Part shown: positions 43,073 to 63,559 of the stretch, piece after piece
How positions within the stretch are numbered: the first letter of the stretch is position 1
How the letters are laid out: each line of letters starts with the position of its first letter
Source: an uncultured Rhodospirillaceae bacterium
Lineage (GTDB): Bacteria > Pseudomonadota > Alphaproteobacteria > GCA-2731375
Assembly: GCA_964631725.1 (NCBI GenBank)
Contig: CAZVYX010000007.1
Location: forward strand, 23,613 to 87,612
DNA: 64,000 nt
Direction of reading: 5' to 3'
Program-made: the position numbers and the translations under genes
Notes under the pieces: model-generated
The model's database searches: none
What the model was told of the DNA's origin: nothing
The model's input: the letters and a program-made list of their open reading frames with translations, nothing else

Positions 43073-44683
43073 ATGGAGGACGGGCAGGCCAAGTCGGCCT
43101 CGGGCATCCCGCTAAAGGCCTATTATCGGCGCGCGGATGTCGAATCCGAGCAACTGGAGGCGCCGGGCCAGGCCGACTTCACCCGGGGCATATTCGCCGA
43201 GGGCTACCGGCGCCAGGCCTGGATGGAAAGTCTGGCCTGCGGCTACGGCCTGCCGGAGGAAACCAACGAACGCATCCGCTATCTGAAAAGCGTCGGGCAG
43301 GCCGGTTACGCCGGGCGGATGTCGATCAATCTGGTGTTCGACCGGCCAACTTTTTGTGGCCTGGACAGCGATCATCCCATGGCCCGCAACGAAGTCGGCA
43401 ACGTCGGCGTCGCCATCGATTGCCTTGACGACATGGCGCGCCTGTTCGATGGCTTCGATTTAGCGCAGTTGAACGCCGGTTTCATCGCCGATCGGTCGGG
43501 GCCGTTCCTGATGGCGATGTATATCGCCCTGGCCGACAAATGGGGCGTTGCCCGGGAGCAACTGCGCGGCATCGTCTGCAACAACCCGTTGACCGATTTC
43601 TTCTGCTCCAAGACGCCGATGTTCCCGCCCGGCGATAGCCTGCGCCTAATGATCGACTGCGTCGCGTTCTGCAACGCCGAAACGCCCCGCTTCAACACGA
43701 TCCGTATCAATGGCTACAACACCCGTGAACTTGGCAGCTCGTCGCTGCAGGAAGTCGGTTTCAATCTGGCCATCGCCAGGGCCATTATCAGCGCCGCCGC
43801 TGAACGGGGCCTGGAGTTGGACAAATTCGTCGCCGGCATCAATTTTCAGTTTTCCCAAGGTAGGGACTTCTTCGAGGATATTTGCAAAATTCGCGCCGCC
43901 AGACGCATGTGGAGCCGCATGCTGGAGGAGGAATTCGCCATCGCGGACGAGGCCGCCCGGCGGATGAAGATCCACATGCAGACCGCCGGCTCCTCCCTGA
44001 CGGCGCAGGAGCCCTTGAACAACATCGCCCGCATTGGCCTCCAGGTCCTCTCGGGCGCCCTGGCCGGCAGCCAGAGCATGCATATCGCCTCCTACGACGA
44101 AGCCCTGGGCATCCCCACGGAAGAGGCGGTGCGCACCGCCATCAAGACCTCGAAAATTGTCATGCATGAAACCGGCATAGACAAGGTCGCCGATCCCCTG
44201 GGCGGCTCCTACTATGTCGAGGCCTTGACCGACGAGTTGGAGCGCCGTATCGGCGCTGTCATGGCGGAAGTGGAGGCCGAAGGTGGCGTCATCGCGGCCC
44301 TGGAAAGCGGCTATTTCGAACAGCAAATCGCCAACACCGCGTATCTGGCACAAAGCGAGATCGAGCGCGGCGAACGCGTCGTGGTCGGCGTCAACGCCTA
44401 CCGCGAAGACGGCGATGTCGGCATCAACGAGATTTTCCGGCCCAACCCGGAGGCCGCGAAAACCGCCGTCGCGCGCATCAAGGCGCTAAAGACGACGCGT
44501 GACGCCGCCGCCGCCACGGCCGCCATCGACGCCATCAAGGCCGCCGCCACGATGGGCGAGGCGATGATGCCGCGCTATGTGGAAGCCGCCAAAGCCAACG
44601 TTACGCTGGGCGAAATGATCAACGCCGTCGAGGCGGTAACGGGGCAGTTCAGCCATGCCGCCATCACCGCGAATATCAGTTAG
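43073..44683 (+). CDS. Methylmalonyl-CoA-mutase-family large subunit, highly divergent paralog B
   Basis: 536 aa. ..FTRGI.., ..DSDHP....EVG.VGVAID...DM.., ..TPRFN.., ..KIRAARRMW.., ..SLTAQEPLNNIARI.., ..DPLGGSYYVE.LT.. are colinear with MCM. Starts 9 nt after the DapA-like stop. Confidence 0.8.
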   Translation: MEDGQAKSASGIPLKAYYRRADVESEQLEAPGQADFTRGIFAEGYRRQAWMESLACGYGLPEETNERIRYLKSVGQAGYAGRMSINLVFDRPTFCGLDSDHPMARNEVGNVGVAIDCLDDMARLFDGFDLAQLNAGFIADRSGPFLMAMYIALADKWGVAREQLRGIVCNNPLTDFFCSKTPMFPPGDSLRLMIDCVAFCNAETPRFNTIRINGYNTRELGSSSLQEVGFNLAIARAIISAAAERGLELDKFVAGINFQFSQGRDFFEDICKIRAARRMWSRMLEEEFAIADEAARRMKIHMQTAGSSLTAQEPLNNIARIGLQVLSGALAGSQSMHIASYDEALGIPTEEAVRTAIKTSKIVMHETGIDKVADPLGGSYYVEALTDELERRIGAVMAEVEAEGGVIAALESGYFEQQIANTAYLAQSEIERGERVVVGVNAYREDGDVGINEIFRPNPEAAKTAVARIKALKTTRDAAAATAAIDAIKAAATMGEAMMPRYVEAAKANVTLGEMINAVEAVTGQFSHAAITANIS

Positions 44684-44695
44684 AGACGTGCCGGC

Positions 44696-45100
44696 ATGAA
44701 CGACCCAGCGATCCGGGTACTGCTGGCCAAGCCAGGCCTGGACAGTCATGAAAGCGGCATCAAGATGATCGCGGCGGGCCTGCGTGACGCCGGCATGGAA
44801 GTCATTTACCTAGGCGTCTTCCAAACCTCCGACAGCATCGTTAGCACTGCCCTGGAGGAGGATGTGGACGTGATCGGCCTGAGCTATCTCTCGGGCGGCC
44901 ACCAGGGCCTGACGGCGGAGCTTATGGCAGCCCTGAAGGACGCGGGCCTGGCCCACGTCAGCGTCATTTGCGGCGGCATCATTCCCGATGACGATCACGC
45001 CGCCCTGAAAGAGATCGGCGTCAAGGGCATCTACGGACCCGGCACGCCGATGGCCGAGGTGGCAGCGGAAATCATGGGCATTGCACGGGGCACAGGGTAA
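44696..45100 (+). CDS. Cobalamin-binding small subunit (paralog B)
   Basis: ..RVLLAKPGLDSHESGIKM.. (DxHxxG), ..DV..IGLS.LSG.H.. and ..GGIIP.. 134 aa, 12 nt after the large subunit. Confidence 0.85.
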   Translation: MNDPAIRVLLAKPGLDSHESGIKMIAAGLRDAGMEVIYLGVFQTSDSIVSTALEEDVDVIGLSYLSGGHQGLTAELMAALKDAGLAHVSVICGGIIPDDDHAALKEIGVKGIYGPGTPMAEVAAEIMGIARGTG

Positions 45101-48197: not shown

Positions 48198-48227
48198 CCG
48201 CGTATCTAGAAGAGGCGCATTCGTTGT

Positions 48228-48261: not shown

Positions 48262-48284
48262 CGCGCCGGGCCGGAGCTTGTAGC

Positions 48285-49235: not shown

Positions 49236-49246
49236 GGGACGCCGCA

Positions 49247-50197: not shown

Positions 50198-50320
50198 CCC
50201 ACCCGCCAAGTCGATGCCGGCAGGCACCTGATAACAGGCGCCCGGAGGCGCTTGCCCATGTGCGGGCGGCTCAAATCGCGCGTAACGAAAATCGTACCCG
50301 GCTGAGTATCAAGATCTGAG

Positions 50321-50364
50321 CCTCAAGAGCTGTGTCTTAAGGGCAGCGTCTCAAGCGCAATGTC

Positions 50365-50368
<4 letters not shown>
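50321..50368. repeat. Two imperfect tandem copies of about 22 bp (CTCAAGmGC-N3-GTCTTA)
   Basis: cctcaagagctgtgtcttaag / cgtctcaagcgcaatgtcttag read directly. The second copy overlaps the stop of the ATPase gene. Confidence 0.3.
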
Positions 50369-51342
<974 letters not shown>

Positions 51343-51398
51343 GAGCTTCTCTGCCTTGGTACGCTTCGATTTTTCCAGAACATCACTGATGGTGGGCG

Positions 51399-52379
51399 CT
51401 AAACGGTTGGTTGTTCATGCAAATGGCATGCGGCGAAATGGCCCGGCGACAGTTCCTTGAACTGAGGAATACGTTCCCTGCAAATATCCATGGTATGGGT
51501 GCAGCGCGGATTGAATTTACACCCCGTCGGCGGATCCATCATGTTGCAGACCGTGCCATCGATCGGCGTAAGGAATTTTTCCTGCACATCCAGCCGCGGG
51601 ATCGAGCGCAACAGCCCCACCGTATAGGGATGTTGGGGATTGGCGAAAATCTCGTCCTTGGTGCCGATTTCCACCAGATGCGAAGCATACATCACGCCAA
51701 TCTTGTCACAGGCATGGGCGACAACGCCCAAATTATGGGTGATGAACAGCAATGACATATCAAAGCGTTCGATCATCGACGAGATCAGTTCCAGGATCAC
51801 CGCCTGAATGGTGACGTCCAGCGCGGTGGTCGGCTCGTCCGCGATCAGAAACGTGGGATCGCAGCTCAACGCCATCGCCAGCATGACGCGTTGGCGCATG
51901 CCGCCTGAAAACTCATGCACATAGTTGTCGATACGGGAACTGGGCGATGGGATACCGACCAATTGCAGCATTTCCGCCGTGCGCTCCCGCGCCTCGGCCT
52001 TGCTCAAGCCCAAATTGGTGCGCAGGGCATCGCCGATTTGGCTGCCCACCGTGAACACCGGGTTCAAGGCGTTCATGGGCTCCTGAAAGACCATGGCAAT
52101 ATTCTGGCCGCGGATCTCTCGGATATCCTTGTCCGACATCTCGTAGAGGTCGCGGCCCTGGAAGCGCACCGTACCGCTGGCAATTTCACCAGGCGGCGAT
52201 GGTATCAGACGCATAATCGCCCGCGCGGTTACGGATTTGCCCGAGCCGCTCTCACCCACCAGGCCAAAGGTCTCGCCCTTGCCTACCTCAAATGAAATCT
52301 GGTCAATCGCACGCAGCACGCCACGCTTCAAATTGAACTGAACACTTAGATTATCGATCTCAAGAACGGGCTGTGCCAT
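51399..52379 (-). CDS. ABC transporter ATP-binding protein (DppD/OppD-like)
   Basis: Walker A ..GESGSGKS.., signature ..FSGGMRQR.. and Walker B ..[11 protein letters not shown].. Confidence 0.9.
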
Positions 52380-52450
52380 GCAAGCGCCCTTCCCCCCCGG
52401 TACTAGCCATTACGCCCTGGAAGGTTCCCAGTTCAGGCCATGGCTGTCAA

Positions 52451-52542
52451 TGGTATAAGCGCCGGTAACGGCCATATACCAAACAAATTTTGCCCTTTTT
52501 CACAATAACTTGCTGTGGGTTAAGTCTTTCAGGTATATACCT
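52451..52542. promoter_or_regulatory. GGTATA/TATACC inverted repeats in the divergent ABC promoter region
   Basis: TGGTATA-N17-TATACCA (52451..52481) and the perfect 12-bp palindrome AGGTATATACCT (52531..52542). The core GTATATAC fits the GTnTAnAC pattern of HutC-type GntR operators. Confidence 0.3.
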
Positions 52543-52569
52543 TCGCAACGCGGGGGTAAGACGGATCAA

Positions 52570-54195
52570 ATGTCCGAACCAGATAACGAACCAACCCTGA
52601 ATCAAAGCCGGCGCGGCGTCCTTAAATCCACGGCGGCGGCGCTGGGAATAGCGGCCACGGCCGGTCTGCCGCGATGGGCTGGCGCGAACCCGAAACGCGG
52701 CGGCGTATTGCGTTTCGCCACCCGCTCGGAGGCGCGCGGCACCGATCCACACAAGAATTTGATCTACAACGTCTCGCAACCGCTGGCGGCGATGTCCCAA
52801 GGACTGTTGGATATTGCACCCGACCTGTCGCCCGCGCCGGGAATCGCCAGCGAATGGGATATCTCGGACGATTTGCAAACCTATACCTTCAAGCTGCGCC
52901 AGAGTGTGACGTTCCACAATGGCGCGGATGTCGATGCGGCGGCGGTGAAATGGAATTTTGAACGGATCATGGAGCCGAAAACCGGCCACCCGCTTGCCCG
53001 TTCGAGCCTGGAAAACATCAAGGAGATCAAGGTCCTCGACAAGCATACCCTGCGCTGCGTGTTGGAGCAGCCCAGCGCGGTCTTCCTTTCGAATGTGACG
53101 TATTATCCCTGCAATCTGATCGCCCCGAACAGCGTCGAACAAGCCGCCACCCACCCCATCGGCTGCGGCCCCTTTAAGTTCAAATCCTGGAAATCCTGGA
53201 ATCGGACGGAACTGGTGCGGTTTGAAAATTATTTCGAGACCGATGCCAATGGCGCGGCCTTGCCGTACCTGGATAGCGTCGTCGGGCTTCCAAAAAAGCA
53301 GGACCGGGCCCGCCTGGATGCGCTAACAAGCGGCGAGACGGATTTGATCGACCATTTGGGCTATGCCGACGCCGGCCGGTTTCGCCGCGAATTTGGCAAC
53401 AAATTTCAAACCTGGAATGTGCCCCAAGTGGGCACCGCCTGGATCGGCTTCAATCTCAAGACCGGCCCCTTCTCGTATCAAAACTCAGAAGGCCACGCCC
53501 TACGCACGGCGGCGGCCCATGCCATCGACCGCGAAGCCATACACCAATCGGTCTTCTACGGCCTGGGCAATTCCACGCACGGGTTCTACGGCCCGGACAG
53601 CCCCTGGCATATGCCTGATGTAACACCGGGGCCGGAGTTCAATCCGGATAAGGCGCGCTTCCTGCTGCGGCGCCATAATCTGCAGAACACACCGATCGCC
53701 TTGGTTTCGCGGCAGGATTTCGCCTACATGCATCAGGCCGGCGAACTGATCCATGCCATGTGGGCCGAGGTCGGCTTCAAGGTTACGCACGATATCCTCC
53801 CGAACCGGGTGTTGCGTGAGAAATACCGCCTTGGGTCCACCGAAGCCGGTGTCTACGATGCCGATTCCACCGCTTCCGCCTACCGCGCCGATCCCGATAG
53901 CTGGTTCTATCGTTCGTTATTGTCTTCGTCGCCGTCAACAAAACTGCGCCTGGGCTACAACAGCGAACAGGTGGATACGCTGATCCGGGAGGCCCGCATA
54001 ACCAGGGACCGGAACAAACGGCTGCACCTTTATACCGAGGCGGAAAATCTCATCAACGAAGAGCTGCCCCTGATCTACACCCACACCGTGCCCCTACTGC
54101 AGGGCGGCGTGAAAAATCTCGCCGGCTACGCGCCAGCATTCGCCGGCCCCTTCAGCACCGTCGGCTCAGGTATCCGGACAGCGCATTTTGTCTAG
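52570..54195 (+). CDS. ABC transporter substrate-binding protein, family 5, copy 2
   Basis: Tat-like signal ..SRRGVLKSTAAALGIAATAGLPRWAGA. The body is colinear with copy 1 (for example ..THPIGCGPFKF.SWK....E.VRFEN..). Confidence 0.85.
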   Translation: MSEPDNEPTLNQSRRGVLKSTAAALGIAATAGLPRWAGANPKRGGVLRFATRSEARGTDPHKNLIYNVSQPLAAMSQGLLDIAPDLSPAPGIASEWDISDDLQTYTFKLRQSVTFHNGADVDAAAVKWNFERIMEPKTGHPLARSSLENIKEIKVLDKHTLRCVLEQPSAVFLSNVTYYPCNLIAPNSVEQAATHPIGCGPFKFKSWKSWNRTELVRFENYFETDANGAALPYLDSVVGLPKKQDRARLDALTSGETDLIDHLGYADAGRFRREFGNKFQTWNVPQVGTAWIGFNLKTGPFSYQNSEGHALRTAAAHAIDREAIHQSVFYGLGNSTHGFYGPDSPWHMPDVTPGPEFNPDKARFLLRRHNLQNTPIALVSRQDFAYMHQAGELIHAMWAEVGFKVTHDILPNRVLREKYRLGSTEAGVYDADSTASAYRADPDSWFYRSLLSSSPSTKLRLGYNSEQVDTLIREARITRDRNKRLHLYTEAENLINEELPLIYTHTVPLLQGGVKNLAGYAPAFAGPFSTVGSGIRTAHFV

Positions 54196-54956
54196 GTAAT
54201 ACGGAAGCGGGTACCGCAAATCATCACGGAATCGCCGTCCACGGCCAACGCCCGCGCATTCGCGGCGGCCAGAATGGCCGTCTTGTCGGCGGCCTTGAGA
54301 TCGACACCGCCAAGGCCTTCGCCGCGGCCATCGGTGACATCGACAAAGCGCAAGGTGGCATTGTCCAGGACGATTTCGGCGGCACCCGAAGCGCCCGTGG
54401 TCACGGGCACGTCGAGAATTTCGCCCCAGCGCGCCGCCAGGGCGCCCGGATCCGGGCTTTGCAGTTCCGCCCCGATCATGGCCGCCGTCCGCTCCACCCG
54501 CACGGCGTCGCGCCAATCCTTGCCAGCCGGGTGCCAGGGGCCGTCGGGGGCCTGATCGCCATCGGTCTGGTCATTTTCCAGCATGCAGCCGCCGGTATCG
54601 CGGGGATGCAACTGGATACCGGTGAAATCTCCATAGTTCAGGGCATTGGCAACGCGCACGCCCAACTCGCCGACGCGGGTGCGGCGCTCTTCCACGTTGT
54701 CGCACTGCAGAATGACCATGTAGCCGCAATCACCGCCCCGGCGTTCCAGATAGCGGCCGCCGGCGGTGTTCTCCTCAATCGGTGCCACCACTTCAAGGAA
54801 GTTCGTGCCCACGGGCAGCAAGGCATTTTCCAGACCGTATTTGCCCACGGCGGGGTCGTGAAAACAGGTCGCCAGACCCAAAACATCGGTCAACATATCC
54901 ACGGCCGGCGCCAATTCCTCGGCCACCAGACAGATTTGCCGCAATCGCAACATCAC
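54192..54956 (-). CDS. VOC (glyoxalase-like) family protein
   Basis: ..LRQICLVAE.L......L..VLGL.........V..YGLENALLPVG..FLEVV.P.. resembles a glyoxalase-like domain. The C-terminal half is unassigned. Confidence 0.65.
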   Translation of the reverse strand: MMLRLRQICLVAEELAPAVDMLTDVLGLATCFHDPAVGKYGLENALLPVGTNFLEVVAPIEENTAGGRYLERRGGDCGYMVILQCDNVEERRTRVGELGVRVANALNYGDFTGIQLHPRDTGGCMLENDQTDGDQAPDGPWHPAGKDWRDAVRVERTAAMIGAELQSPDPGALAARWGEILDVPVTTGASGAAEIVLDNATLRFVDVTDGRGEGLGGVDLKAADKTAILAAANARALAVDGDSVMICGTRFRIT

Positions 54957-54968
54957 ATTATCCTCCCT

Positions 54969-55943
54969 TCAAACCCCATCACCCAGCGACGTTTCTTGCA
55001 GTTGCCGCAATAGCAGCGTCGCCGCGGCATCCAGCCCAAGGTCCCCCCGTTGCACCTGGGCGCAAAGGTCATCCACATTGGCAGCGCCGACGTCGCGGAT
55101 CAATTGCCTGACACGCTGCGCCGTGGCATCGGCCAGCAGGCGGCGTACCCGTTGCAGGGCGCGGGCGGCCCGCTCCTCCGCCGTCACCGCCACGCCCTTG
55201 CGGGCCTCCACCGCATCCGCCAGGGCAACAATTCCCTCGCCCGTCGTGGCCGTGGTGGAGAGCACCGGCACTTCCGCCATCTCCGCCTCCCGCAGGGACA
55301 GCATGCTTTTCAATTGACTGACCGTACGCTCCGCCAGGGGGAGGTCGGCCTTGTTGACGACAAGAATATCGGCGATTTCCAGTATGCCGGCCTTGATCGC
55401 CTGAACGTCATCACCCAGGCCGGGAGCGCAAATGACCACGCGCACATCGGCGATTTCGGCAATCTCGACCTCCGACTGACCGGCGCCGACGGTTTCCACA
55501 ACGACAATGTCCCGGCCGGAGGCATCCATCACATCGATAACCCGCGCCGCCATCGGCGACAGCCCGCCCAGATGGCCCCGCGCGGCCAGGGAGCGGACAA
55601 ATACGCCGGGATCACGGGTGTGCTCGCTCATGCGAATGCGGTCGCCCAGAATGGCCCCGCCCGTAAGTGGTGAGGACGGGTCGACCGCGACGACCCCGAC
55701 GCTGTGTTCGCGCCGGCGCAACTCCACGATCAGGGCATTGACCAGGGTCGACTTACCGGCCCCCGGCGGACCGGTAAAGCCAACCACCAGGGCATGTCCC
55801 AAATGCGGCTGAATGCCGGCCAGCAGCTCCGCCGCCTGCGCGGTGTCATTTTCCACGGCGGTAATCGATTTCGCCAACGCGATGGCCTGCCCCGCTAGGA
55901 GACGTTGCAGCAGGCTATCCGGTTCCTTCGCTGCCGCCGCCAT
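54969..55943 (-). CDS. meaB: Methylmalonyl-CoA-mutase-associated G-protein chaperone MeaB/ArgK
   Basis: ..GFTGPPGAGKSTL.., ..VAVDPSSPLTGGAILGDRIRM.., ..VVETVGAGQSE.. and ..VVNKADL.. Confidence 0.9.
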   Translation of the reverse strand: MAAAAKEPDSLLQRLLAGQAIALAKSITAVENDTAQAAELLAGIQPHLGHALVVGFTGPPGAGKSTLVNALIVELRRREHSVGVVAVDPSSPLTGGAILGDRIRMSEHTRDPGVFVRSLAARGHLGGLSPMAARVIDVMDASGRDIVVVETVGAGQSEVEIAEIADVRVVICAPGLGDDVQAIKAGILEIADILVVNKADLPLAERTVSQLKSMLSLREAEMAEVPVLSTTATTGEGIVALADAVEARKGVAVTAEERAARALQRVRRLLADATAQRVRQLIRDVGAANVDDLCAQVQRGDLGLDAAATLLLRQLQETSLGDGV

Positions 55944-55945
55944 GA

Positions 55946-56353
55946 TCAGGCCGCCGCCCGGGCCGCACCGGCCAGGCGGGTAATTTCCTCGACAATCCGC
56001 TCCCGCGTGCTGCCCGGATGGAAAATGGCGGCGACACCGGCGGCCCGCATTCCATCAATATCCTGATCCGGTACGATACCGCCAAGCACGACCTGGACAT
56101 GTCCCAGATCGGCCTCCTTCAAGGCGGTCATTAAATCCGGCAGCAGCAAATGATCGGTGGCCAGGGACGAAACGCCGATGACATCCACGTCCTCCTGTGT
56201 CGCCAGGGCGACAACATCGGCGATTTCCTGCCAGGGGCCGGTGTAAACAACTTCCATCCCGGCATCGCGCAAATAGGCCGCGACAATCCGGCTGCCCCGG
56301 TCGTGGCCGTCGAAGCCAATCTTGGTGATAAGAACCCTGGCCGGCGCGGTCAT
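55946..56353 (-). CDS. Cobalamin-binding small subunit, canonical mutase type (paralog C, no adjacent large subunit)
   Basis: ..RVLITKIGFDGHDRGSRIVA..LRDAGMEVVYTG.. (DxHxxG), ..DVDVIGVSSL.. and ..GGIVP.. ATG at 56353. The stop is 2 nt before the meaB ATG. Confidence 0.85.
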   Translation of the reverse strand: MTAPARVLITKIGFDGHDRGSRIVAAYLRDAGMEVVYTGPWQEIADVVALATQEDVDVIGVSSLATDHLLLPDLMTALKEADLGHVQVVLGGIVPDQDIDGMRAAGVAAIFHPGSTRERIVEEITRLAGAARAAA

Positions 56354-56471
56354 GAAGTTCCGTCCCCGATCAGGGGCGCCAAAAAGACGTTTCCGATACT
56401 GCAATACATGGCAAATTTTCTAAGCAGCATGATCCGGCGAGTCAACAGGACAGTACGCCACGCCGGCGTCC

Positions 56472-56861
56472 TCAAACAATTCGCTTCCAATAGCTGTCCT
56501 TGCTGGCGATCAGGCCGTCACGGACAGTGTAGATGTCGACGCCACGGACGTCATAAGGGCTACCGTCCGCCACATAGGTCCCCGTGGCGCGGAAGGTGCC
56601 AATGATGTGGCCATCGGCATGGTGTACCGCCGTCTCGGAAAATCGGACATCGCGGACGATCTTGGCCCGCTCCGCCAAGGCCTGCTTAACCTCTTCGGCG
56701 CCATGGCGAATTCGGCCGTGGGGAGCGTCGGGACCTTGGGCCTCTACCCAGACGAAATCGTCGGTTACGCAGGCCAAAATGCCCTCCACATCGGCCCGGT
56801 TAAAGGCCTTGCCGAAGCGGCGCAAAAGATCCATCGCCGCATCTTCGGATTGGCTCATCAT
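56472..56861 (-). CDS. SnoaL-like / NTF2-family protein
   Basis: 129 aa. ..LLRRFGKAFN..D.EGILA.VTDDFVW.. and ..G.D.YTVRDGLIA.KDSYWK.. fit a SnoaL-like fold. Confidence 0.65.
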   Translation of the reverse strand: MMSQSEDAAMDLLRRFGKAFNRADVEGILACVTDDFVWVEAQGPDAPHGRIRHGAEEVKQALAERAKIVRDVRFSETAVHHADGHIIGTFRATGTYVADGSPYDVRGVDIYTVRDGLIASKDSYWKRIV

Positions 56862-56873
56862 TCAACTCCCATT

Positions 56874-57680
56874 TCAGTTCGGCCAAAGGCCGCGCTCGAT
56901 AAAAACGTCCTTCAGAACGCCGGTTTCATCACTCATGATACCATCGACGCCCAGATCCAAAAGACGTCTCATTTCCGCCGCGTCATTGATCGTCCAGACA
57001 TGTACTTTCAGGTTCCGCGCATGGGCCGCATCGATAAACCGCCCATCGACAACCGGCAGTCCATAATGGCGGAGCGGCACCTGTGCCGCCAGGGCCGTGA
57101 AGTCGGAAACAGGCAGACCGAGGCTGGCCAGACGCAGGCGCACAACTTCCCCAGGGCCCATGGAGGTGCAGAGCGAAGGCCCCAGCATGGACCGCAAGTG
57201 TTTCAGGCGCCGGCCGGAGAAACTGCCGACGCAGACCCGCGCCAGAACGTCGGGCCGGTTCAGCGCCTTTACCAAGGGCGCGACGGCGCCGTCGGCCTTG
57301 GGGTCGATATTGATCCGCAGATCCGGCCAGGTCATGAGTAATTCGTCGAACAGCGGGATCGGTTCCCGCCCGTGCACCCTGGCCTGGGCGACCTCGGCCC
57401 AATCGAGCCCGGCAATCAGGCCCTTGTGCCCCGTCACCCGGTCCAGGCGGTCATCGTGGAAAGCAACCAGAACGCCGTCGCGGGTGGCGTGAACATCGGT
57501 TTCGACATAGCCATAACCCAGGTCCACCGCATCCTGAAAAGCGGCCATGGTATTTTCCGGATAGTTGGCGGCGCTACCCCGATGGGCGATGGCCACGGGC
57601 CCGGAAGCATCCAGATAGGGGTGCCGGCTCACGAAGCCTCTATCTCCGCCCCGGTGCGATATCGATGCCGGGTGCTTCAA
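56874..57680 (-). CDS. Glycerophosphodiester phosphodiesterase (GDPD) family protein
   Basis: ..IAHRG....YPENT..AF..A...G....E.DV..T.DG.LV..HD..LDR.T.. The ORF opens with TTG at 57680; GTG at 57632 is an alternative start. Confidence 0.8.
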   Translation of the reverse strand: MKHPASISHRGGDRGFVSRHPYLDASGPVAIAHRGSAANYPENTMAAFQDAVDLGYGYVETDVHATRDGVLVAFHDDRLDRVTGHKGLIAGLDWAEVAQARVHGREPIPLFDELLMTWPDLRINIDPKADGAVAPLVKALNRPDVLARVCVGSFSGRRLKHLRSMLGPSLCTSMGPGEVVRLRLASLGLPVSDFTALAAQVPLRHYGLPVVDGRFIDAAHARNLKVHVWTINDAAEMRRLLDLGVDGIMSDETGVLKDVFIERGLWPN

Positions 57681-57760
57681 ACAAACTCATGCGGATGACC
57701 TCCCTTCGGAGGCACAATATACCCGGCGGTTGGCAACAAATCAGCCGTAAACTAGATATC

Positions 57761-59125
57761 TCAGGCAACCGCCGCGCTGGCCGCCTCCTCCCGCTCGACG
57801 CGAAGGCGGCGCATTTCATCGGCCACCAGAGTGGGCATGGCACAGAGTTCGCAGTCGTTGGGCAGGGCCGCCGGCTCGAATGAATCAACACCGTACTTCA
57901 GACGCATCTTGGCGATCTCGCGCACATTTTCCACGAACCATTCGCCACGCGGTGGCCGCTCGCCGGCATAGGCGGTGCCTTCGACCGGGCTCCAGACCAG
58001 GGGGATCGGCGCGATACCCCGTTCGCACAGCCATTCGATGCCCTCGAAGAAGCTTTCGTGGGATTCCCGGAAACAGCCCGTGACCAGATGCGTGCTGACC
58101 TTGCCCGGCCCATAGACCTCGGCCGCGATTTCCAGCGCCTTCAGCCAATGATCCCGGCCCTGCTGTTCCGCCTTGCCCGGGCAATGCTTCTCGAACAGTT
58201 GTTCATTCCAGACTTCCAGATTATAGGCGACGGAATAGAAGCCCTGTTCCTTGTGCACCGCGATGGTATCCAGGTCCTCGGGTGCAGTGCGGATCACGTT
58301 GACGGGAATTTCATGCCGGCCCAGGGCTTCCTGCATGGCCCTGACGACGTTCAGGATCATGTCGCCCTCGCGGTCGTTGACCGTGCCGTCGCGCTTCACC
58401 GTGCGCTTCAGGAAACCGCCGGTAAGCAGAATATGGCGCACGCAGCCTTCCTCAAACGCGGCGCGGGCGGTGGCGACGATTTGATCATAGCTGCGCTTGT
58501 TGAGCTGCAGATCGTCCTTGGTCCAGCCCATGTTCGGCACGATGTTGCAAAAATCACAGCCCTTATCGTTGGCCCAGTACATACAAAACGGCGAATAGTT
58601 CAGGACCATGCAGTCCTGGCCCCGCTTTGGCGCGACGCGGCGCATGATGATGCCGGGAGAAGCCTCCATGCTGTAGTAGTTGGGCCGCGGGATATGACGC
58701 GCCTCCATGACGAACTTGCCGTCCCGTTTCAGCATCAACTGGCCATCTTCCACGGTACACAGCCAGCGCGATTGCTTGTCCTCGCGCACCTGTATGGTGG
58801 TGTCCATGGGCAGCACCAGTTCCTCGGGCAGATAGTATTCGTGCTCGCCGTGGTTCCAATCGAACAGCCAGCGGGATTGCTCACGGTAGATTTCATTGAC
58901 GCCTTCCAGGGCGGAGGGGTCGAATTGCACGCCGTCGGCCAACAGGCTGCCCTTGACCCAAATTTCCTGCTCCAGACCCTTCGCGGTGGGCGCCAGGCCG
59001 GGCTTGATGAAGGGCGCGTTCTGCCGCTGCGCGCCATGGATTTCGTCGTACCAGGTATTGTATTTGTCGTTGATATCGGCGAACGGATCCGCATCGGCGG
59101 CGGTGCTTCTGGCGATCATGTTCAT
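57761..59125 (-). CDS. Radical-SAM-like protein with non-canonical C-x8-C-x2-C motif and long N-terminal extension
   Basis: ..SPFCMYWANDKGCDFCNIV.. (nt 58547-58585) with ..HILLTGGF.. 43 residues later. ATG at 59125 has GGAGGAG 7 nt upstream, 19 nt after the GntR stop. The longer ORF (to 59299) overlaps GntR and is Arg-rich. Confidence 0.6.
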   Translation of the reverse strand: MNMIARSTAADADPFADINDKYNTWYDEIHGAQRQNAPFIKPGLAPTAKGLEQEIWVKGSLLADGVQFDPSALEGVNEIYREQSRWLFDWNHGEHEYYLPEELVLPMDTTIQVREDKQSRWLCTVEDGQLMLKRDGKFVMEARHIPRPNYYSMEASPGIIMRRVAPKRGQDCMVLNYSPFCMYWANDKGCDFCNIVPNMGWTKDDLQLNKRSYDQIVATARAAFEEGCVRHILLTGGFLKRTVKRDGTVNDREGDMILNVVRAMQEALGRHEIPVNVIRTAPEDLDTIAVHKEQGFYSVAYNLEVWNEQLFEKHCPGKAEQQGRDHWLKALEIAAEVYGPGKVSTHLVTGCFRESHESFFEGIEWLCERGIAPIPLVWSPVEGTAYAGERPPRGEWFVENVREIAKMRLKYGVDSFEPAALPNDCELCAMPTLVADEMRRLRVEREEAASAAVA

Positions 59126-59144
59126 AACATTTCTCCTCCCAAAA

Positions 59145-59897
59145 TCAGCTTTCGTCCCGCAGCGGAATCGAAGCCTGATAGCTGTAGCGGTCCCCCCGCA
59201 GGTATAGGTGCGATACCGCGACCGGCCTGCCATCGTCCGCGGTATAGACGTTCTCGACCATGAACATCGGCGCCCCGAATTCGACCTCAAGCAGTTCATT
59301 CAGGTCGCGGTCGGCGGTGGTTGCGACAACCCGTTGGTCCATGCGGGCCAGGGTGAAGGCGCAATCCTTGCGCATGACATCGACGAAACTGCGTACGCCG
59401 GACATGGTCTCATCGGCGATGAAACCAAAATCCTCAACCCTGCCAAAGTTGACGTGCAGCGATATGGTCTCGCCCTGCAGGCGGCGGATGCGCCGCATGG
59501 TCCACAGTTCGGCCTGGGCCCGGCAACTAAAAATTTCCGCCACCGCCGACGGCGCGGGCGCCGCGCCGATGCTCAGCACTTCCTGCTCAATCTCCCGGTC
59601 CTCACCGCTGGCCGTATCCAGCCATTCGGCAAAATTGCCCGACAGCTTGACCTCAATGCCCGCCGGATCGGGCCGCTTCGTCACGATGGTGCCGATGCCG
59701 CGCCGGCCCTGGACCAGGCCATCGGCCGCCAGCAGATCGATCGCCTTGCGTATGGTGATGTTGGAAACGGAAAATATCTGCTCCAGCACCACCGCCGCCG
59801 GCAGGGTCTCACCGGTGCTGTATTCACCGCTGGAAATACGACGGCGCAGGGTGTTGGCGACCTGCCGGTATTGCGGAATGGCTCCTGCGACACTCAC
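59145..59897 (-). CDS. GntR-family transcriptional regulator (HutC subfamily, UTRA effector domain)
   Basis: Winged HTH ..YRQVANTLRRRI.SGEY..G..LP....L.....VS..T.RKA...L...GL...R.G.GT.V.. with a UTRA-sized C-domain. GTG start has GGAGGA upstream. Confidence 0.85.
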   Translation of the reverse strand: MSVAGAIPQYRQVANTLRRRISSGEYSTGETLPAAVVLEQIFSVSNITIRKAIDLLAADGLVQGRRGIGTIVTKRPDPAGIEVKLSGNFAEWLDTASGEDREIEQEVLSIGAAPAPSAVAEIFSCRAQAELWTMRRIRRLQGETISLHVNFGRVEDFGFIADETMSGVRSFVDVMRKDCAFTLARMDQRVVATTADRDLNELLEVEFGAPMFMVENVYTADDGRPVAVSHLYLRGDRYSYQASIPLRDES

Positions 59898-59921
59898 GGT
59901 TAGTTCCTCCTCGACCAGACC

Positions 59922-61298
59922 TTATTCAAGGTCGATCATTTTGCCGGGGTTCATGATGTTTTCCGGGTCAAGAGCACGCTTGATCTGCCGCATGACTTCC
60001 ACCGCATCGCCCAGTTCCTCGACCAGGAAGTCCTTCTTGCCCAGGCCGATGCCGTGTTCGCCGGTACAGGTGCCATCCATGGCCAGGGCGCGGCGGATCA
60101 TGCGGGCGTTCAGGTCTTCCGCCTCCGCGACCTCGGCCTCGCTGTTGGGATCGATCACATAGATCAGATGAAAATTACCGTCGCCCACATGGCCCAGCAT
60201 GGGCGCCGGGAAGGAACAGCCTTCTAGCTCCTTCTGGGTCTCGACAATGCATTCGGACAGGCGGGAGAGCGGTACGCAAACATCGGTGCCCCAAAGCTCG
60301 GCGCCCTGCCGCATCGCCTTGACCGCCGGGGCGGCGTCATGACGGGCCTGCCAAAGGGCATCCCGTTTCTCCTGCTGGGTTTCCCAATTGAATTCGCCGC
60401 CGCCGAATTCCGCGACGATGGCCGAGGTCACTTCGATCTGCTCCTCGACGGACTTTGGACCGCCGTTGAATTCCATGAACAACGTCGGCTGTACGGGATA
60501 GTCAAAGCCGGAATAGTCATTGATCGCCTGTAACTGCACTTCATCGACCAGCTCAACGCGCGCTATGGGCACGCCCGCCTGTATGGTGCTGACCACGCTA
60601 TCGACGGCATCCTTGACGGAGGGGAAATTCACCACCGCCGCCGCGATGCTTTCGGGTATGGCATGCAATTGCACCGTGATCTCGGTCATCACGCCCAGGA
60701 TGCCCTCGGAGCCTACGAACAGGCGGGTCAGATCCAATCCGGCGGACGACTTCTTGGCCCGCTGGGCCGTGTTGATAACGCGGCCGTCCGGCAGGACGAC
60801 TTTGATGGCGATGACGTTGTCCTTCATGGTGCCATAGCGCACGGCATTGGTGCCGGAAGCCCGGGTCCCCGTCATGCCGCCGATGGTGGCGTCCGCGCCG
60901 GGATCCACCGGAAAAAACAAACCCGTGTCGCGAATATGCTCATTCAGTTGTTTTCGCGTCACGCCGGCCTGCACCGTGCAACTGAAATCCTCCGGATAAA
61001 CCGAGAGAATCCGGTTCATCTGTCCCATGTCCATGCAGACGCCGCCCCGCACCGCCTGAATGTGCCCCTCAACCGAAGTGCCAACGCCAAAGGGGATCAG
61101 CGGTGTCTTCGAACCCGCACAGATCTTGACGATTTCAACGACTTCCTCGGTGCTGTGGGGAAACACCACCGCATCGGGCGGCTGGGCGCCGTGCCAGAAT
61201 TCGTCCCGGCCATGCTGTTCCCGCACCGCCTCTGCCGTGCTCAGCCGCTCCGCCAAAAGATCGCCGATTGCATCGGTTACCGAAGCCGAAATTGACAT
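59922..61298 (-). CDS. FAD-linked oxidase (GlcD / D-lactate dehydrogenase-like), second copy
   Basis: ..VVFP.STEEVV.IVK.C.....P.IPFG.GTS.EG.. and C-terminal ..GT.TGEHG.G.GK... ATG at 61298 follows GGGAGAGGG. Confidence 0.85.
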   Translation of the reverse strand: MSISASVTDAIGDLLAERLSTAEAVREQHGRDEFWHGAQPPDAVVFPHSTEEVVEIVKICAGSKTPLIPFGVGTSVEGHIQAVRGGVCMDMGQMNRILSVYPEDFSCTVQAGVTRKQLNEHIRDTGLFFPVDPGADATIGGMTGTRASGTNAVRYGTMKDNVIAIKVVLPDGRVINTAQRAKKSSAGLDLTRLFVGSEGILGVMTEITVQLHAIPESIAAAVVNFPSVKDAVDSVVSTIQAGVPIARVELVDEVQLQAINDYSGFDYPVQPTLFMEFNGGPKSVEEQIEVTSAIVAEFGGGEFNWETQQEKRDALWQARHDAAPAVKAMRQGAELWGTDVCVPLSRLSECIVETQKELEGCSFPAPMLGHVGDGNFHLIYVIDPNSEAEVAEAEDLNARMIRRALAMDGTCTGEHGIGLGKKDFLVEELGDAVEVMRQIKRALDPENIMNPGKMIDLE

Positions 61299-61337
61299 CA
61301 CCCTCTCCCGTTTCAGTCCAGGCGGGACCGACCTATA

Positions 61338-61355
61338 TCGTATATATGTATACGA
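61338..61355. promoter_or_regulatory. Inverted repeat TCGTATA-tatg-TATACGA in a divergent promoter region
   Basis: 7-bp arms inside an AT-rich patch (ctatatcgtatatatgtatacgaatataataat), between the GlcD-like/GntR array and the enoyl-CoA hydratase operon. Confidence 0.35.
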
Positions 61356-61474
61356 ATATAATAATCCGGTCAACGTTTCGGTAGTTGCCGGCACGGAGGC
61401 ATGGACGCCGCCATGGTTTTGCTGGCACAGTGCCAAAAATCGAAAGCTGGAATTTTGTCAGATGGAGAGCCCAC

Positions 61475-62266
61475 GTGAGCTACGAAACAATCGAATTTGA
61501 GATGCGCGGCGCCGTCGCCTGGGTGACCTTGAACCGGCCCAAGTCGTTCAATGCCCTTGACCTGACCATGGCCAAGGAACTGTGTGATCTGAGCATCCGC
61601 CTGGGCGGGGACAAATCGGTGCGCTGCGTGGTCATGACGGGCAAGGGCGATGCCGCTTATTGCGCCGGCGGCGATGTTCCCAGTTTTGCCGCCGATGTTG
61701 AAAACCTGCCCACCTTGCTGAAGGAAATGACCACCTATCTGCACATGGCGATCTCGCGCTTCGCCTGGATGCGGGCGCCCATGATCGCCGCCGTCAATGG
61801 CGTCGCCGCGGGCGCCGGCCTCAGCATGGTTGCCTGTACCGATCTGGCGATCGCGGTCGAGGGCGCCAGCTTCACTTCCGCCTATACCAAGATCGGACTG
61901 TCGCCGGACGGCAGTTCCACCTACTACCTGCCGCGCATAATCGGCACCCGCCGGGCGGCCGAGCTTTACATGACCAACCGCGTGCTGAGCGCCCAGGAGG
62001 CGCTGGATTGGGGCCTGATCAACAGAATCGTGCCGGCGGATGAGCTTACGGCGGAAACCGAGAAACTGGCCAATCAATTGGCCGACAGCGCCACCGAAGC
62101 CATGGGCGCGGTCAAGGAAATGCTCTTGATGTCGACCACCGACAGCCTGGAATCCCAGATGGAGCGCGAGACCCGCAATATTGCCCGTCTGGGCGGCACG
62201 GCGGATGGCCGGGAGGGCGTCGACGCCTTCGTCAACAAGCGCCAACCGAATTTTGCCGGCGAATAG
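61475..62266 (+). CDS. Enoyl-CoA hydratase/isomerase (crotonase) family protein
   Basis: ..VAWVTLNRP...NAL.., ..V.TG.G..A.CAGGD.. and ..P.IAAVNG.AAGAG... In-frame GTG at 61475 follows GGAGAG. The longer ORF start at 61385 is unlikely. Confidence 0.85.
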
Positions 62267-62286: not shown

Positions 62287-63171
62287 ATGATTTCCACCGA
62301 TCCCCGCTACGAACGAAAATTCGCCACCGTCAACGGCAAGCGCATGGCCTATGTGGACGAGGGCGAGGGCGACCCCATCGTCTTTCAGCACGGCAATCCC
62401 ACCTCGTCCTACCTGTGGCGCAACATCATGCCCCATTGCGAGGGATTGGGCCGCCTGATCGCCTGCGATCTGATCGGCATGGGCGACAGCGAGAAGCTGG
62501 AGAACTCCGGACCCGACCGCTACACCTATACCGAACAGCGGGAATACCTTTACGCCCTGTGGCAACAGATCGGCGTTACGGACAATGTCGTTTTCGTGAT
62601 CCATGACTGGGGCTCAGCCCTGGGCTTCGACTGGGCCAATCAGAACCGGGACAAGGTGCAGGGGATCGCCTACATGGAAGCGGTAGTCAAAGAGTTGAGC
62701 TGGAGCGATTTCCCGGAATTTGGCCGTACCGTGTTTCAGGGCTTTCGCTCGGACGCGGGTGAAAACATGGTTCTGGACAAGAATATCTTCGTCGAGCGGG
62801 TTTTGCCTGGCGCCGTCATTCGCGACATGACCGAGGAGGAGATGGCCCATTACCGCAAACCCTATCTGGAGCCTGGCGAGGACCGCCGGCCCACCCTGAC
62901 CTGGCCACGGATGATTCCGATCGAGGGCGAGCCTCCGGACGTATGCCAGGCCGCTACTGACTACGGCTCCTGGTTGTCGCAATGCGATCTGCCGAAATTG
63001 TTCATAAATGCCGAACCTGGCTCCATCCTGGTCGGACCACAGCGGGAATTCTGCCGTAGCTGGCCGAACCAGACTGAAGTCACCGTCAAGGGCATTCATT
63101 TCGTGCAGGAGGACAGCCCGGACGAAATCGGCCAGGCGGTTGCCGAATTCGTCAAAGGTATTCGAGGATAA
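62287..63171 (+). CDS. Haloalkane dehalogenase (HLD-II type alpha/beta hydrolase)
   Basis: ..[30 protein letters not shown].., nucleophile ..[11 protein letters not shown].., ..YMEAVV.. (Glu) and ..[14 protein letters not shown].. (His). Confidence 0.85.
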
Positions 63172-63190
63172 GGCAAAATTGGAGGGCACG

Positions 63191-63559
63191 ATGCCAATTA
63201 TCAATATCGACGACGTCGAGAAACAACCGTTTCCGGGCGGCGCCACCTATCAGACCATCGTCGGCGATGACGAGGGCTCGACCCCGATCCGCCTGGGCCT
63301 GCAGATCTCGGAGCCGGGCTATTCCACCGGCACCCACTCCCATCCCTACATGGAAGTGATCACCGTGGTTGAAGGCACGGGCGAAGCCTGGGTGGAGGGG
63401 CAGGACGGCATGGTGGCGGTTGAAGCCGGCATGACCCTGGTGCTGCCGCCGGGCGTCAGGCACGGTTTCCGCAACAACGGGACCGGGTTATTGAAAACCT
63501 ACGGCGTGCACGCTTCGCCCGACCGCATCGTCGATTTTCATCCCGAGGATGACGCCTGA
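63191..63559 (+). CDS. Cupin-domain protein
   Basis: ..GTHSHPYMEVITVVEGTGEAWVEG.. and ..PPGV.HGF.N.. cupin motifs. ATG at 63191 follows GGAGGG. Confidence 0.75.
   Translation: MPIINIDDVEKQPFPGGATYQTIVGDDEGSTPIRLGLQISEPGYSTGTHSHPYMEVITVVEGTGEAWVEGQDGMVAVEAGMTLVLPPGVRHGFRNNGTGLLKTYGVHASPDRIVDFHPEDDA

Follow-up and report, generated by a model that had tools for sequence, protein, structure and literature searches.

Most radical SAM families are without a known reaction. PylB provides a precedent for a SAM-radical skeleton mutase that acts on an amino acid, and QueE, an enzyme with an expanded cluster loop, is an active SAM cleaver. HcgA/HmdB, QueE, and ThiC, in which an altered or lengthened loop belongs to a SAM-cleaving [4Fe-4S] site, are alike in the alteration of this loop to the protein analyzed here. 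HcgA itself carries CX5CX2C, is an active SAM cleaver, and is BioB/HydE/PylB-like (PMC10100467). Non-canonical cysteine triads of this sort have been admitted to the radical SAM superfamily, and the RadicalSAM.org paper lists CX8CX2C for Megaclusters 4-6-1, -3, -5, and -6, with no function given there (PMC9477430). This perspective was the only relevant result of our literature search on CX8CX2C and variant radical SAM families; the remaining matches were plant DUF26 proteins, anamorsin, and NUBP1, and no paper describing a characterized member of the variant rSAM family was found.

The gene considered here, referred to as rSAM, is located in a stretch of 64,000 nucleotides that was analyzed as a whole (the window, to which all positions refer). 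The gene and the elements of its product are as follows.

57761..59125, minus strand: variant radical SAM gene, 454 aa (from the open reading frame and its translation)
59133..59139, minus strand: Shine-Dalgarno-like GGAGGAG, 7 nt 5' of the rSAM ATG (from the sequence)
58616..59125, minus strand: N-terminal region, residues 1-170, two helices and a small beta-sheet unit, with many conserved Arg and Trp residues
58547..58585, minus strand: C181-x8-C190-x2-C193 loop with Phe192 before the last Cys, proposed ligands of a SAM-binding [4Fe-4S] cluster
58412..58435, minus strand: HILLTGGF, residues 231-238, at the end of strand beta2, counterpart of the GGE SAM-binding motif
58214..58222, minus strand: N302-L-E304, a SAM motif of the ribose type where beta4 ends (from alignments and comparison with BioB)
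58172..58183, minus strand: C315-P-G-K318, a motif conserved family-wide (from conservation in alignment A3)

The reading frame extends from ATG 59125 to a stop ending at 57761. An alternative start, ATG 59299, would give a longer open reading frame running into the neighboring GntR/UTRA gene, which stops at 59145. The closest homolog (P0001, 94% identical) begins MNMIARS, the same as the product started from 59125. The start and 454-aa length given in the earlier note, with GGAGGAG 7 nt upstream, are thus borne out by the sequence and by the start of P0001. Its description of the motifs also held on re-reading the protein: residues 181-193 (nt 58585..58547) read CMYWANDKGCDFC, with an aromatic residue before the last cysteine, and CxxxCxxC is absent from the entire 454-aa protein. 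HILLTGGF was correctly placed as well, with G236 of LTGG 43 residues C-terminal to C193, and C181 has 180 residues ahead of it.

Judging from the alignments, the Cx8CxxC motif is more than chance, since the three cysteines are invariant, the x8 spacing predominates, and the canonical spacing is absent among relatives. C181, C190, and C193 were observed to be invariant both in an alignment of 30 sequences reaching down to 26% identity (A1) and in one of 50 family representatives whose columns average 20% identity (A3). The x8 spacing is found in 71/75 homologs and CxxxCxxC in none of them; in the wider family, the best 149 representatives include 135 with x8, 7 with x9, and 0 with the canonical spacing. 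Phe or Tyr stands ahead of the last cysteine in 134 of the 135 x8 representatives (F192 here). The expanded cluster loop proposed earlier is accordingly one that is kept across homologs and family representatives.

Conservation extends to the other motifs. In LTGG, G237 shows no variation across the 50 representatives, and T235 is near-invariant in A1; E304 does not vary in A1 and is near-invariant in A3, and G350 of VTG (beta5) is near-invariant as well. A set of motifs comprising F192, LTGG, NLE, and VTG is present, with counterparts of the GGE-like, ribose, and beta5 GxIxGxxE-like motifs, and we take these residues to be putative SAM contacts, as in other radical SAM enzymes. In the CPGK motif, A3 shows an invariant G317 flanked by near-invariant P316 and K318; C315 is conserved in 100% of orthologs and 86% of distant members. 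The ortholog group forms one cluster at 50% identity, with 60-71% identity across Aminicenantes, Acidobacteriota, Gemmatimonadales, Desulfobacterota, Syntrophomonadaceae, and Alphaproteobacteria, and within it four further cysteines are kept (C123, C172, C315, and C428).

On profile and fold, rSAM is a genuine radical SAM enzyme and belongs to the "variant rSAM" family, which is already catalogued. The NCBIfam model NF045502 ("variant_rSAM") matches residues 52-407 with 312 bits against a cutoff of 125, spanning profile positions 2-354 of 357, and is matched by 50/50 sampled family representatives. The general profile PF04055 (Radical_SAM) just misses its gathering score, with 26.4 against 29.5 bits (E 9e-6, residues 189-360), and its matches on homologs were mostly graded weak or faint. 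An AF2 model of the protein (pLDDT 89.5, pTM 0.90) has a (beta/alpha)6 core, with six beta-alpha units between about residues 172 and 410, strands at 172-178, 231-236, 275-278, 298-300, 343-348, and 372-376 with a helix after each, and the Cys loop following beta1. When this model was compared with the PDB by Foldseek, all 31 significant matches (E <= 0.001) were radical SAM enzymes, those at E ~1e-6 being MgmA (the top match), MiaB, PylB (3t7v, E 2e-6), LipA/LIAS, RlmN, and MoaA; TM values of 0.3-0.57 against solved radical SAM enzymes indicate a modest structural similarity. The earlier note had proposed a divergent radical SAM family and named a partial TIM barrel as a test of the predicted structure. 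Divergence is borne out by the NF045502 score together with the predicted fold, and a barrel of that kind, matching radical SAM enzymes exclusively, was predicted. In the profile search, PF04055 stayed just below its gathering score and NF045502 was well above its cutoff. The refuting condition set in the note, a family already characterized with this motif, applies by half: NCBI maintains the variant_rSAM model and RadicalSAM.org lists the motif, and the family is catalogued, not new, with no characterized member found.

Placed beside the described systems, rSAM shows no family-level difference from NF045502, with which it is alike in the Cx8CxΦC loop (Φ, aromatic), LTGG, NLE, and CPGK; its ortholog group goes beyond the profile by about 50 less-conserved N-terminal residues and the four extra conserved cysteines. 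The likeness to Megacluster-4-6-x is by the CX8CX2C motif and BioB/HydE affinity only. A phmmer search of PDB sequences with the single rSAM protein gave no match at E <= 1, and a search with the family profile gave biotin synthase 8vdw (E 4.8e-6) and HydE. In this family-profile alignment, C190 and C193 align to the last two cysteines of the biotin synthase CxxxCxxC, and NLE aligns to SNIE of 8vdw. The JGI name "biotin synthase-related radical SAM" is in agreement with this placement. By profile, BioB and HydE are the closest relatives of solved structure, and by fold PylB, but these have canonical CX3CX2C, a full or near-full barrel, and no counterpart of the N-terminal 170 residues; identity is ~15%, the first cysteine of rSAM lies five residues further upstream, and we found no evidence tying rSAM to the substrates of BioB, HydE, or PylB. 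HcgA/HmdB differ in having x5 versus x8 and in an unrelated context and N-terminal region.

The secondary structure of residues 1-170 was taken from the full-length AF2 model. NF045502 takes in this region from residue 52, the ~50 residues ahead being less conserved, and from about residue 117 it is common to the MSMEG_0568 (Nit1C) radical SAM family; P100, P148, and G158 are near-invariant family-wide in A3. No relatives of the region were detected outside the family. When residues 1-168 were modeled alone with a 12-sequence alignment, pLDDT was 63.7, and Foldseek found no structural match for this isolated model (best E 0.42). Because the region folds poorly alone, in the models it seems to be a cap integral to the barrel and not an added independent domain, and we propose that it serves as a cap or a substrate-binding part. 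What had been described as a new N-terminal domain does lack relatives beyond the family, but it is part of the family model, is partly common to MSMEG_0568, and does not look independent.

The genes around rSAM suggest a metabolic context for the enzyme. Those in the window are listed here.

59145..59897, minus strand: regulator of the GntR/UTRA (HutC-type) class, adjoining rSAM on the upstream side and 19 nt from its start (Pfam GntR and UTRA)
56874..57680, minus strand: glycerophosphodiester phosphodiesterase-family gene, next downstream (Pfam GDPD, 155.8 bits)
56472..56861, minus strand: SnoaL-like small protein (Pfam SnoaL_2)
55946..56404, minus strand: stand-alone B12-binding small subunit, acyl-CoA mutase C-terminal type (PF02310 81 bits, TIGR00640 118.8 bits)
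54969..55943, minus strand: MeaB, G-protein chaperone of B12 mutases (PF03308 282 bits; TIGR00750 303.6 against a cutoff of 240.75)
54192..54956, minus strand: VOC/glyoxalase-like protein, last gene of the same-strand run (weak Glyoxalase_3 match)
43073..44683, plus strand: acyl-CoA mutase large subunit, 13 kb from rSAM, context only (TIGR00641 478 bits)
44696..45100, plus strand: acyl-CoA mutase small subunit, 13 kb from rSAM, context only (TIGR00640 141 bits)

The GntR/UTRA-rSAM arrangement is also found in ortholog loci L004-L006, and the order of rSAM, stand-alone B12 subunit, and MeaB, which form one same-strand gene run in the window, is repeated in L004 and L005; the counterpart of the VOC/glyoxalase-like protein in L004 is called Glyoxalase_3. 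No mutase large subunit adjoins the B12 subunit at 55946..56404, which shares 47% identity with the other small subunit (44696..45100). The mutase at 43073..45100 has HcmA (4r3u) as its best PDB match; it was rejected as an ortholog of the mutase linked to rSAM elsewhere, as it is 35-37% identical to the mutases of L011, L088, and L090, compared with 76-78% for rSAM-linked mutases across lineages. Near rSAM in the window there is no IlvE or 2-oxoacid:ferredoxin oxidoreductase, and the only cupin is a distant one, 4 kb off and 27-29% identical. The neighbors in the window (GDPD, SnoaL, B12 subunit, MeaB, and VOC) thus depart from the common ortholog pattern. In scans of 53900..61700, no promoter-like site was found and terminator-like sites numbered 8 where 5.7 would be expected, which does not delimit an operon.

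That pattern was drawn from about 20 independent rSAM ortholog loci. A GntR regulator adjoins rSAM in 7 and a small cupin lies directly downstream in 8; IlvE is nearby in 6 and a 2-oxoacid:ferredoxin oxidoreductase in 4-5, with rSAM and the cupin inserted between the oxidoreductase subunit genes in L091. HMG-CoA lyase occurs in 6, PanB in 4, and family III CoA-transferase in 4. Transporters are of the TRAP type in 5 loci and of the Liv ABC type in 4, and the best matches of the Liv binding protein are solved Leu/Ile/Val-binding proteins. The nearest solved relatives of the TRAP binding protein (~120-144 bits) are mostly binders of sugar acids or other hydroxy acids, including the pantoate-bound 4pak/4p9k; at this distance, naming the TRAP ligand from them was rejected. 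An acyl-CoA mutase, B12 subunit, or MeaB is present in 5 loci: in L090 the genes for the large and small mutase subunits and rSAM follow one another without interruption, and in L007, L011, and L088 only a GntR gene separates rSAM from mutase/B12/MeaB, L011 additionally having the oxidoreductase genes. The linked mutases are conserved as strongly as rSAM and show Val, Ile, and Gly at the specificity-setting positions of HCM, MCM, and ICM; a search on pivalyl-CoA mutase specificity residues gave nothing usable, and no publication combining radical SAM with isobutyryl-CoA mutase, BCAT, and cupin was found. No universal partner gene of rSAM emerged across the ~20 loci, seven of which contain solely peptidases, D-amino-acid-type enzymes, 2-hydroxyacid dehydrogenases, or unrelated genes. 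Taken as a whole, the gene neighbors point to the breakdown of branched-chain amino or keto acids.

The best explanation, and one that we consider reasonably probable, is that this variant rSAM enzyme performs a SAM-radical step on a branched-chain substrate. We infer cluster binding and SAM cleavage along the following lines. C181, C190, and C193, whose loop exceeds the canonical one by five residues, would ligate a [4Fe-4S] cluster, and SAM would bind to the fourth iron of this cluster, with LTGG (beta2), NLE (beta4), and VTG (beta5) holding the remainder of SAM. One-electron reduction would split SAM into a 5'-deoxyadenosyl radical, which may take a hydrogen atom from a small substrate that the (beta/alpha)6 barrel and the N-terminal cap, rich in Arg and Trp, would enclose between them. 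The class of this substrate is suggested by the gene neighborhoods, from which a branched-chain C5-C6 acid (amino, 2-oxo, or 2-hydroxy) or the corresponding CoA ester seems most likely. The route would be a GntR-controlled catabolism feeding IlvE, 2-oxoacid:ferredoxin oxidoreductase, B12 acyl-CoA mutase, and/or HMG-CoA lyase, and the step itself is probably a skeleton rearrangement or another step initiated by hydrogen abstraction, the reaction type being a guess. It could further be speculated, although we regard this as doubtful, that the reaction on the branched-chain acid or CoA ester is new to radical SAM chemistry and belongs to a module with an unrecognized B12 mutase subtype (Val/Ile/Gly). 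A skeleton rearrangement of the PylB or mutase kind would be one example of such a step; in the boldest version, rSAM would act directly with the stand-alone B12-binding subunit and MeaB of its operon.

Related to this is the proposal that rSAM works directly with cobalamin, which we find quite unlikely. It could take the form of a two-component system, in which rSAM is one half and a separately encoded, MeaB-loaded B12-binding subunit is the other, or of a re-adenosylation, in which the 5'-deoxyadenosyl group is returned in a SAM-dependent manner to the cob(II)alamin of the linked acyl-CoA mutase. The run of rSAM, lone B12 subunit, and MeaB without a mutase large subunit in the window and, alike, in L004 and L005, the contiguity in L090, the close linkage in L007, L011, and L088, and the shared conservation of the linked mutases are all compatible with it, and no adenosyltransferase was seen in the B12/mutase-linked clusters. 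A likeness of rSAM to class B (cobalamin-dependent) radical SAM enzymes lies in its genomic association with B12-binding proteins, and MgmA was the top Foldseek match. In class B enzymes, however, the B12 domain is fused, whereas PF02310 was not found in the rSAM polypeptide and the B12 proteins beside rSAM are separate mutase-type small subunits, which in L007, L011, L088, and L090 stand next to the large subunit as in ordinary mutases. About 15 of the 20 ortholog neighborhoods have no B12 gene within 10 kb, and a common pathway is the simpler account of the linkage. A role as a cofactor or metallocluster maturase like BioB, HydE, or HcgA, rather than as a catabolic enzyme, is unlikely in our view. 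It would fit the affinity to biotin synthase and HydE, a weak TIGR03957 (HmdB/HcgA) match of 13.7 bits that is below the cutoff of 320.9, the cysteines C123, C172, C315, and C428, which could hold an auxiliary cluster, and the distant paralogs (30-34% identical) that adjoin NifH/NifD/NifK-like genes in five MAGs. Those paralogs constitute a different subgroup, however, and the orthologs lie in GntR-regulated clusters with transporters and catabolic enzymes and with no client metalloenzyme beside them. An identity of the paralogs with MarB of methylthio-alkane reductase was also considered and rejected, since MarB, a homolog of NifB, carries the full set of NifB motifs.

Two further readings concern the chemistry and the identity of the protein. 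That rSAM binds an Fe-S cluster without SAM radical chemistry, for example, as a drifted redox or Lewis-acid enzyme, would accord with the subthreshold Pfam score, the non-canonical loop, and the modest TM values, but the aromatic residue before the last cysteine, G237, and E304 are under strong selection family-wide, and the expanded-loop enzymes HcgA and QueE do cleave SAM; we judge this reading very unlikely. Shared function with NitD (MSMEG_0568), the radical SAM protein encoded in the Nit1C cyanide/nitrile gene cluster, is hardly credible. The two are homologous from about residue 117 to 429, a span that takes in the barrel and some of the N-terminal beta unit, and TIGR04043 (MSMEG_0568) gives 104.1 bits over these residues and is also matched by 48/50 family representatives. 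That score is far under the cutoff of 303.7, however, and nitrilase, GNAT, and AIR-synthase-like neighbors are absent from the window and all ortholog loci, with the flavoprotein of Nit1C also missing from the window and the recurrent ortholog clusters. Identity with NitD of Nit1C was rejected on this score and on gene context. To our knowledge, no reaction has been assigned to NitD itself.

A SAM-radical step on a branched-chain substrate is the preferred account. The invariant Cx8CxxC loop poses a structural question, namely, how the SAM-binding iron is presented with five extra residues. The branched-chain clusters and the conserved B12 mutase linkage lead to a short, concrete list of candidate substrates, with which an anonymous database family becomes experimentally approachable. 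If the reaction is not new, rSAM would be one more "radical SAM protein"; if it is, a gap in anaerobic branched-chain carbon metabolism would be filled. Should the module with an unrecognized mutase subtype prove true, anaerobes would gain an alternative route for branched carbon skeletons.

The 454-aa product of the minus-strand gene at 59125..57761 (here rSAM) has the features that the earlier note described: CMYWANDKGCDFC occupies residues 181-193 (nt 58585..58547, minus strand) and supplies the triad C181-x8-C190-x2-C193, HILLTGGF spans residues 231-238, and CxxxCxxC is absent from the whole protein. Alignment of homologs, which had been suggested as a check, bears the motif out. The three cysteines do not vary in an alignment of 30 sequences that extends to 26% identity, nor among 50 family representatives with a mean column identity of only 20%. 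The x8 spacing occurs in 71 of 75 homologs. Of the 149 best representatives from the wider family, 135 have it, seven have x9, and none has the canonical spacing; F or Y precedes the last cysteine in 134 of the 135 x8 representatives. Because the triad is invariant down to 20 to 26% identity and x8 spacing dominates, the alignments indicate that the motif is under selection.

The same alignments show G237 (LTGG), E304, and G350 (VTG) to be invariant or near-invariant family-wide, and these are predicted to be the usual SAM contacts, a role that such positions have across the radical SAM superfamily. When the family profile is aligned with biotin synthase (8vdw), C190 and C193 match the last two cysteines of CPENCKFC and NLE (302-304) matches NIE. 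The first canonical cysteine falls opposite a non-Cys residue, and the first ligand therefore appears shifted five residues upstream in rSAM. Besides the triad, C123, C172, C315, and C428 are 98-100% conserved in the ortholog group (relatives 60-71% identical), with C315, in a CPGK motif, also 86% conserved among distant family members; these residues could be ligands of an auxiliary cluster or metal.

In profile searches, the NCBIfam model NF045502 ('variant_rSAM') scores 312 bits over residues 52-407 against a cutoff of 125, and Pfam Radical_SAM, at 26.4 bits, falls just under its threshold of 29.5. TIGR04043, the model for MSMEG_0568 (NitD), covers residues 117-429 with 104 bits, far below its cutoff of 303.7, and the HmdB/HcgA model is barely detectable. 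Among 50 sampled family representatives, NF045502 matches all 50 and TIGR04043 matches 48. When 1.84 billion cluster representatives were searched exhaustively with the profile, 679 relatives passed E <= 1e-30 and 1699 passed E <= 1e-10, with the entire ortholog group forming one 50% cluster (representative P0028). A single-sequence search of the PDB found no match to rSAM, and the family profile retrieved biotin synthase 8vdw (E 4.8e-6) and HydE. RadicalSAM.org places CX8CX2C in Megaclusters 4-6-1, -3, -5, and -6, within the biotin/thiazole-synthase-like Megacluster-4 (PMC9477430), which fits this BioB/HydE affinity and the JGI label 'biotin synthase-related'. The proposal thus described the right kind of protein, but the family had been catalogued before (NF045502; CX8CX2C clusters listed in PMC9477430) and its novelty shrinks to 'uncharacterised': our literature searches found no characterised member, and the family is consequently functionally blank.

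The expectation of a barrel fold was also borne out. The AlphaFold2 model, computed from the 30-sequence alignment, has high confidence (pLDDT 89.5, pTM 0.90) and runs from two N-terminal helices through a small beta unit at roughly residues 100-141 into six beta-alpha units, with the Cys loop after the first strand. All 31 Foldseek matches in the PDB at E <= 0.001 are radical SAM enzymes, including MgmA, MiaB, PylB, lipoyl synthase, RlmN, MoaA, BlsE, and HydG (best E ~1e-6). The N-terminal 170-180 residues had been regarded as a new domain. The region is not a gene-specific add-on, being covered by NF045502 from residue 52 and by TIGR04043 from residue 117, with P100, P148, and G158 near-invariant across the family. 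It is Arg- and Trp-rich and among the most conserved parts within the ortholog group (YREQSRWLFDWN, LPEELxLPMD, QVRENxDSRWLC, RHIPRPxYY). A model of the region in isolation has low confidence (pLDDT 63.7), and Foldseek with it found no structural relative; within the full-length model the region is confident. We conclude that it is probably an integral barrel cap, which plausibly binds substrate, and that lineage-specific sequence is confined to the first ~50 residues.

The start at ATG 59125 is preceded 7 nt upstream by GGAGGAG, and the 94% identical homolog P0001 begins MNMIARS, like this start. The mechanical ORF extends to ATG 59299, a stretch that overlaps the GntR/UTRA gene, whose stop is at 59145. 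Antisense to rSAM lies a 401-aa ORF (58058-59263, plus strand), and similar ORFs are numerous across the region, as is typical of DNA of 61% GC; third-position GC and homology favour the minus-strand gene.

Genes of the rSAM run and the mutase region in the window
59897..59145, minus strand, GntR/UTRA regulator, first gene of the same-strand run
59125..57761, minus strand, rSAM, same run
57680..56874, minus strand, GDPD-family gene, same run
56861..56472, minus strand, SnoaL-like gene, same run
56404..55946, minus strand, stand-alone B12-binding mutase small subunit, same run
55943..54969, minus strand, MeaB (G-protein chaperone of B12 mutases), same run
54956..54192, minus strand, VOC-like gene, same run
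46542-54195, peptide-type ABC transporter (two SBP_bac_5 binding proteins, two permeases, two ATPases)
45107-46255, minus strand, MetE-like protein, antisense, after the HCM-like mutase
44696..45100, plus strand, acyl-CoA mutase small subunit, 13 kb from rSAM
43073..44683, plus strand, acyl-CoA mutase large subunit, 13 kb from rSAM
42122-43063, plus strand, DapA-like aldolase, directly upstream of the HCM-like mutase

The order of genes within the rSAM run recurs on three contigs from an alphaproteobacterial relative (94% identical). The run holds an orphan B12 small subunit and MeaB with no large subunit, and the distant pair (43073-45100) is complete in large and small subunits without MeaB; the small subunits of the run and the pair share 47% identity. 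The transporter separates the mutase from the rSAM run, as also at locus L004. Upstream of the run lie a GlcD-like FAD oxidase, an enoyl-CoA hydratase, an alpha/beta hydrolase, and a cupin. The small cupin at 63193-63559 (plus strand, within ORF 63008-63559), 4 kb from rSAM on the opposite strand, shares only 27-29% identity with the cupin immediately 3' of rSAM in eight other lineages, and by this comparison may or may not be its functional counterpart.

Orthologs occur in Aminicenantes, Acidobacteriota, Gemmatimonadales, Desulfobacterota, Syntrophomonadaceae, and Latescibacterota. Clustering and Pfam/NCBIfam annotation of neighbouring ORFs at ~20 independent loci revealed two recurring layouts. 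The first reads GntR(FCD), rSAM, 110-aa cupin, PanB, HMG-CoA lyase, family III CoA-transferase, and TRAP DctPQM (L002/L012, L087; variants in L015, L016, L024). The second reads [acyl-CoA mutase large, small, MeaB], GntR, [2-oxoacid:ferredoxin oxidoreductase], rSAM, cupin, IlvE, and a Liv-type ABC transporter (L007, L010, L011, L018, L088, L091), whose binding protein has solved Leu/Ile/Val-binding proteins as its best matches. At L091 the oxidoreductase subunit genes flank rSAM and the cupin, and next come IlvE, the Liv genes, and a reductase of the ApbA/PanE family. In place of these partners, seven loci have peptidases, D-amino-acid-type enzymes, DAO, or 2-hydroxyacid dehydrogenases. What the loci have in common is chemistry at C2, or close to it, of branched-chain amino, oxo, and hydroxy acids and their CoA esters. 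The TRAP DctP of L012 (15094-16077) has as nearest solved relatives 4p47, 4pc9, 4pdh, 4n8y, and 4p9k/4pak (120-144 bits), whose ligands we take to be sugar acids or other hydroxy acids, with 4pak presumably (R)-pantoate-bound. Together with PanB and the ApbA/PanE-family gene this hints at pantoate-like substrates, at a similarity too low to conclude.

B12 mutase components lie within 10 kb of rSAM in 5 of the ~20 loci, far above the ~1% that a rough estimate would lead one to expect for a few such loci per genome; L090 has the large subunit, the small subunit, and rSAM one directly after another. The linked large subunits (L088 5829-7526, L090 7825-9552, L011 1014-2786) are 76-78% identical across lineages, with 2-hydroxyisobutyryl-CoA mutase HcmA (4r3u) as best PDB match. 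They align Val, Ile, and Gly opposite HcmA I90, HcmA D117, and MCM R207, which we take as the reference residues, and may on this basis be a subtype without assigned specificity.

More distant paralogs (30-34% identical), also with Cx8CxxC, adjoin NifH-, NifD-, and NifK-like genes in Clostridia and Methanoperedens MAGs (L034 12306-17059, with the paralog from ~17075; also L022, L026, L035, L046), and these loci also hold NMT1/THI5-type ABC binding proteins. Their identification as MarB was rejected, as MarB is NifB-like. In Methanoperedenaceae and Methanobacteriota MAGs, a canonical 466-aa B12-binding radical SAM protein directly follows a 36-38% identical paralog (L020 11799-13199; also L021, L022).

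The analysis establishes the family to which rSAM belongs, its fold, the conservation of ligands and SAM motifs, and the pattern of its gene neighbourhoods; rSAM is very probably a SAM-radical enzyme. C181, C190, and C193 would hold a [4Fe-4S] cluster whose fourth iron would bind SAM, and reductive cleavage would generate a 5'-deoxyadenosyl radical that would take an H atom from a small substrate of branched-chain type lying beneath the N-terminal cap. At a guess, the reaction could be a skeleton rearrangement (PylB- or CoA-mutase-like) or another step initiated by H abstraction. A role in branched-chain acid catabolism is a tentative proposal, and any one specific reaction would have only a small chance of being correct.

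A maturase like BioB, HydE, or HcgA could be envisaged from the BioB/HydE-type nearest relatives, the four extra conserved cysteines, and the nitrogenase-like genes beside distant paralogs, but is unlikely considering the catabolic context of the orthologs. Direct work with cobalamin, as part of a two-component B12-radical SAM system or in re-adenosylation of the mutase cofactor, would suit the orphan subunit beside MeaB and the L090 arrangement; however, a B12 neighbour is missing at most orthologs and rSAM itself has no B12 domain, making this quite improbable. An Fe-S protein without SAM chemistry is very unlikely given the conserved SAM motifs, and the function of NitD in the Nit1C cluster, the least credible reading, is excluded by the TIGR04043 score and gene context. 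What this analysis adds is the pattern of gene neighbourhoods and the association with a conserved mutase subtype that may lack an assigned specificity, which together provide testable substrate candidates.
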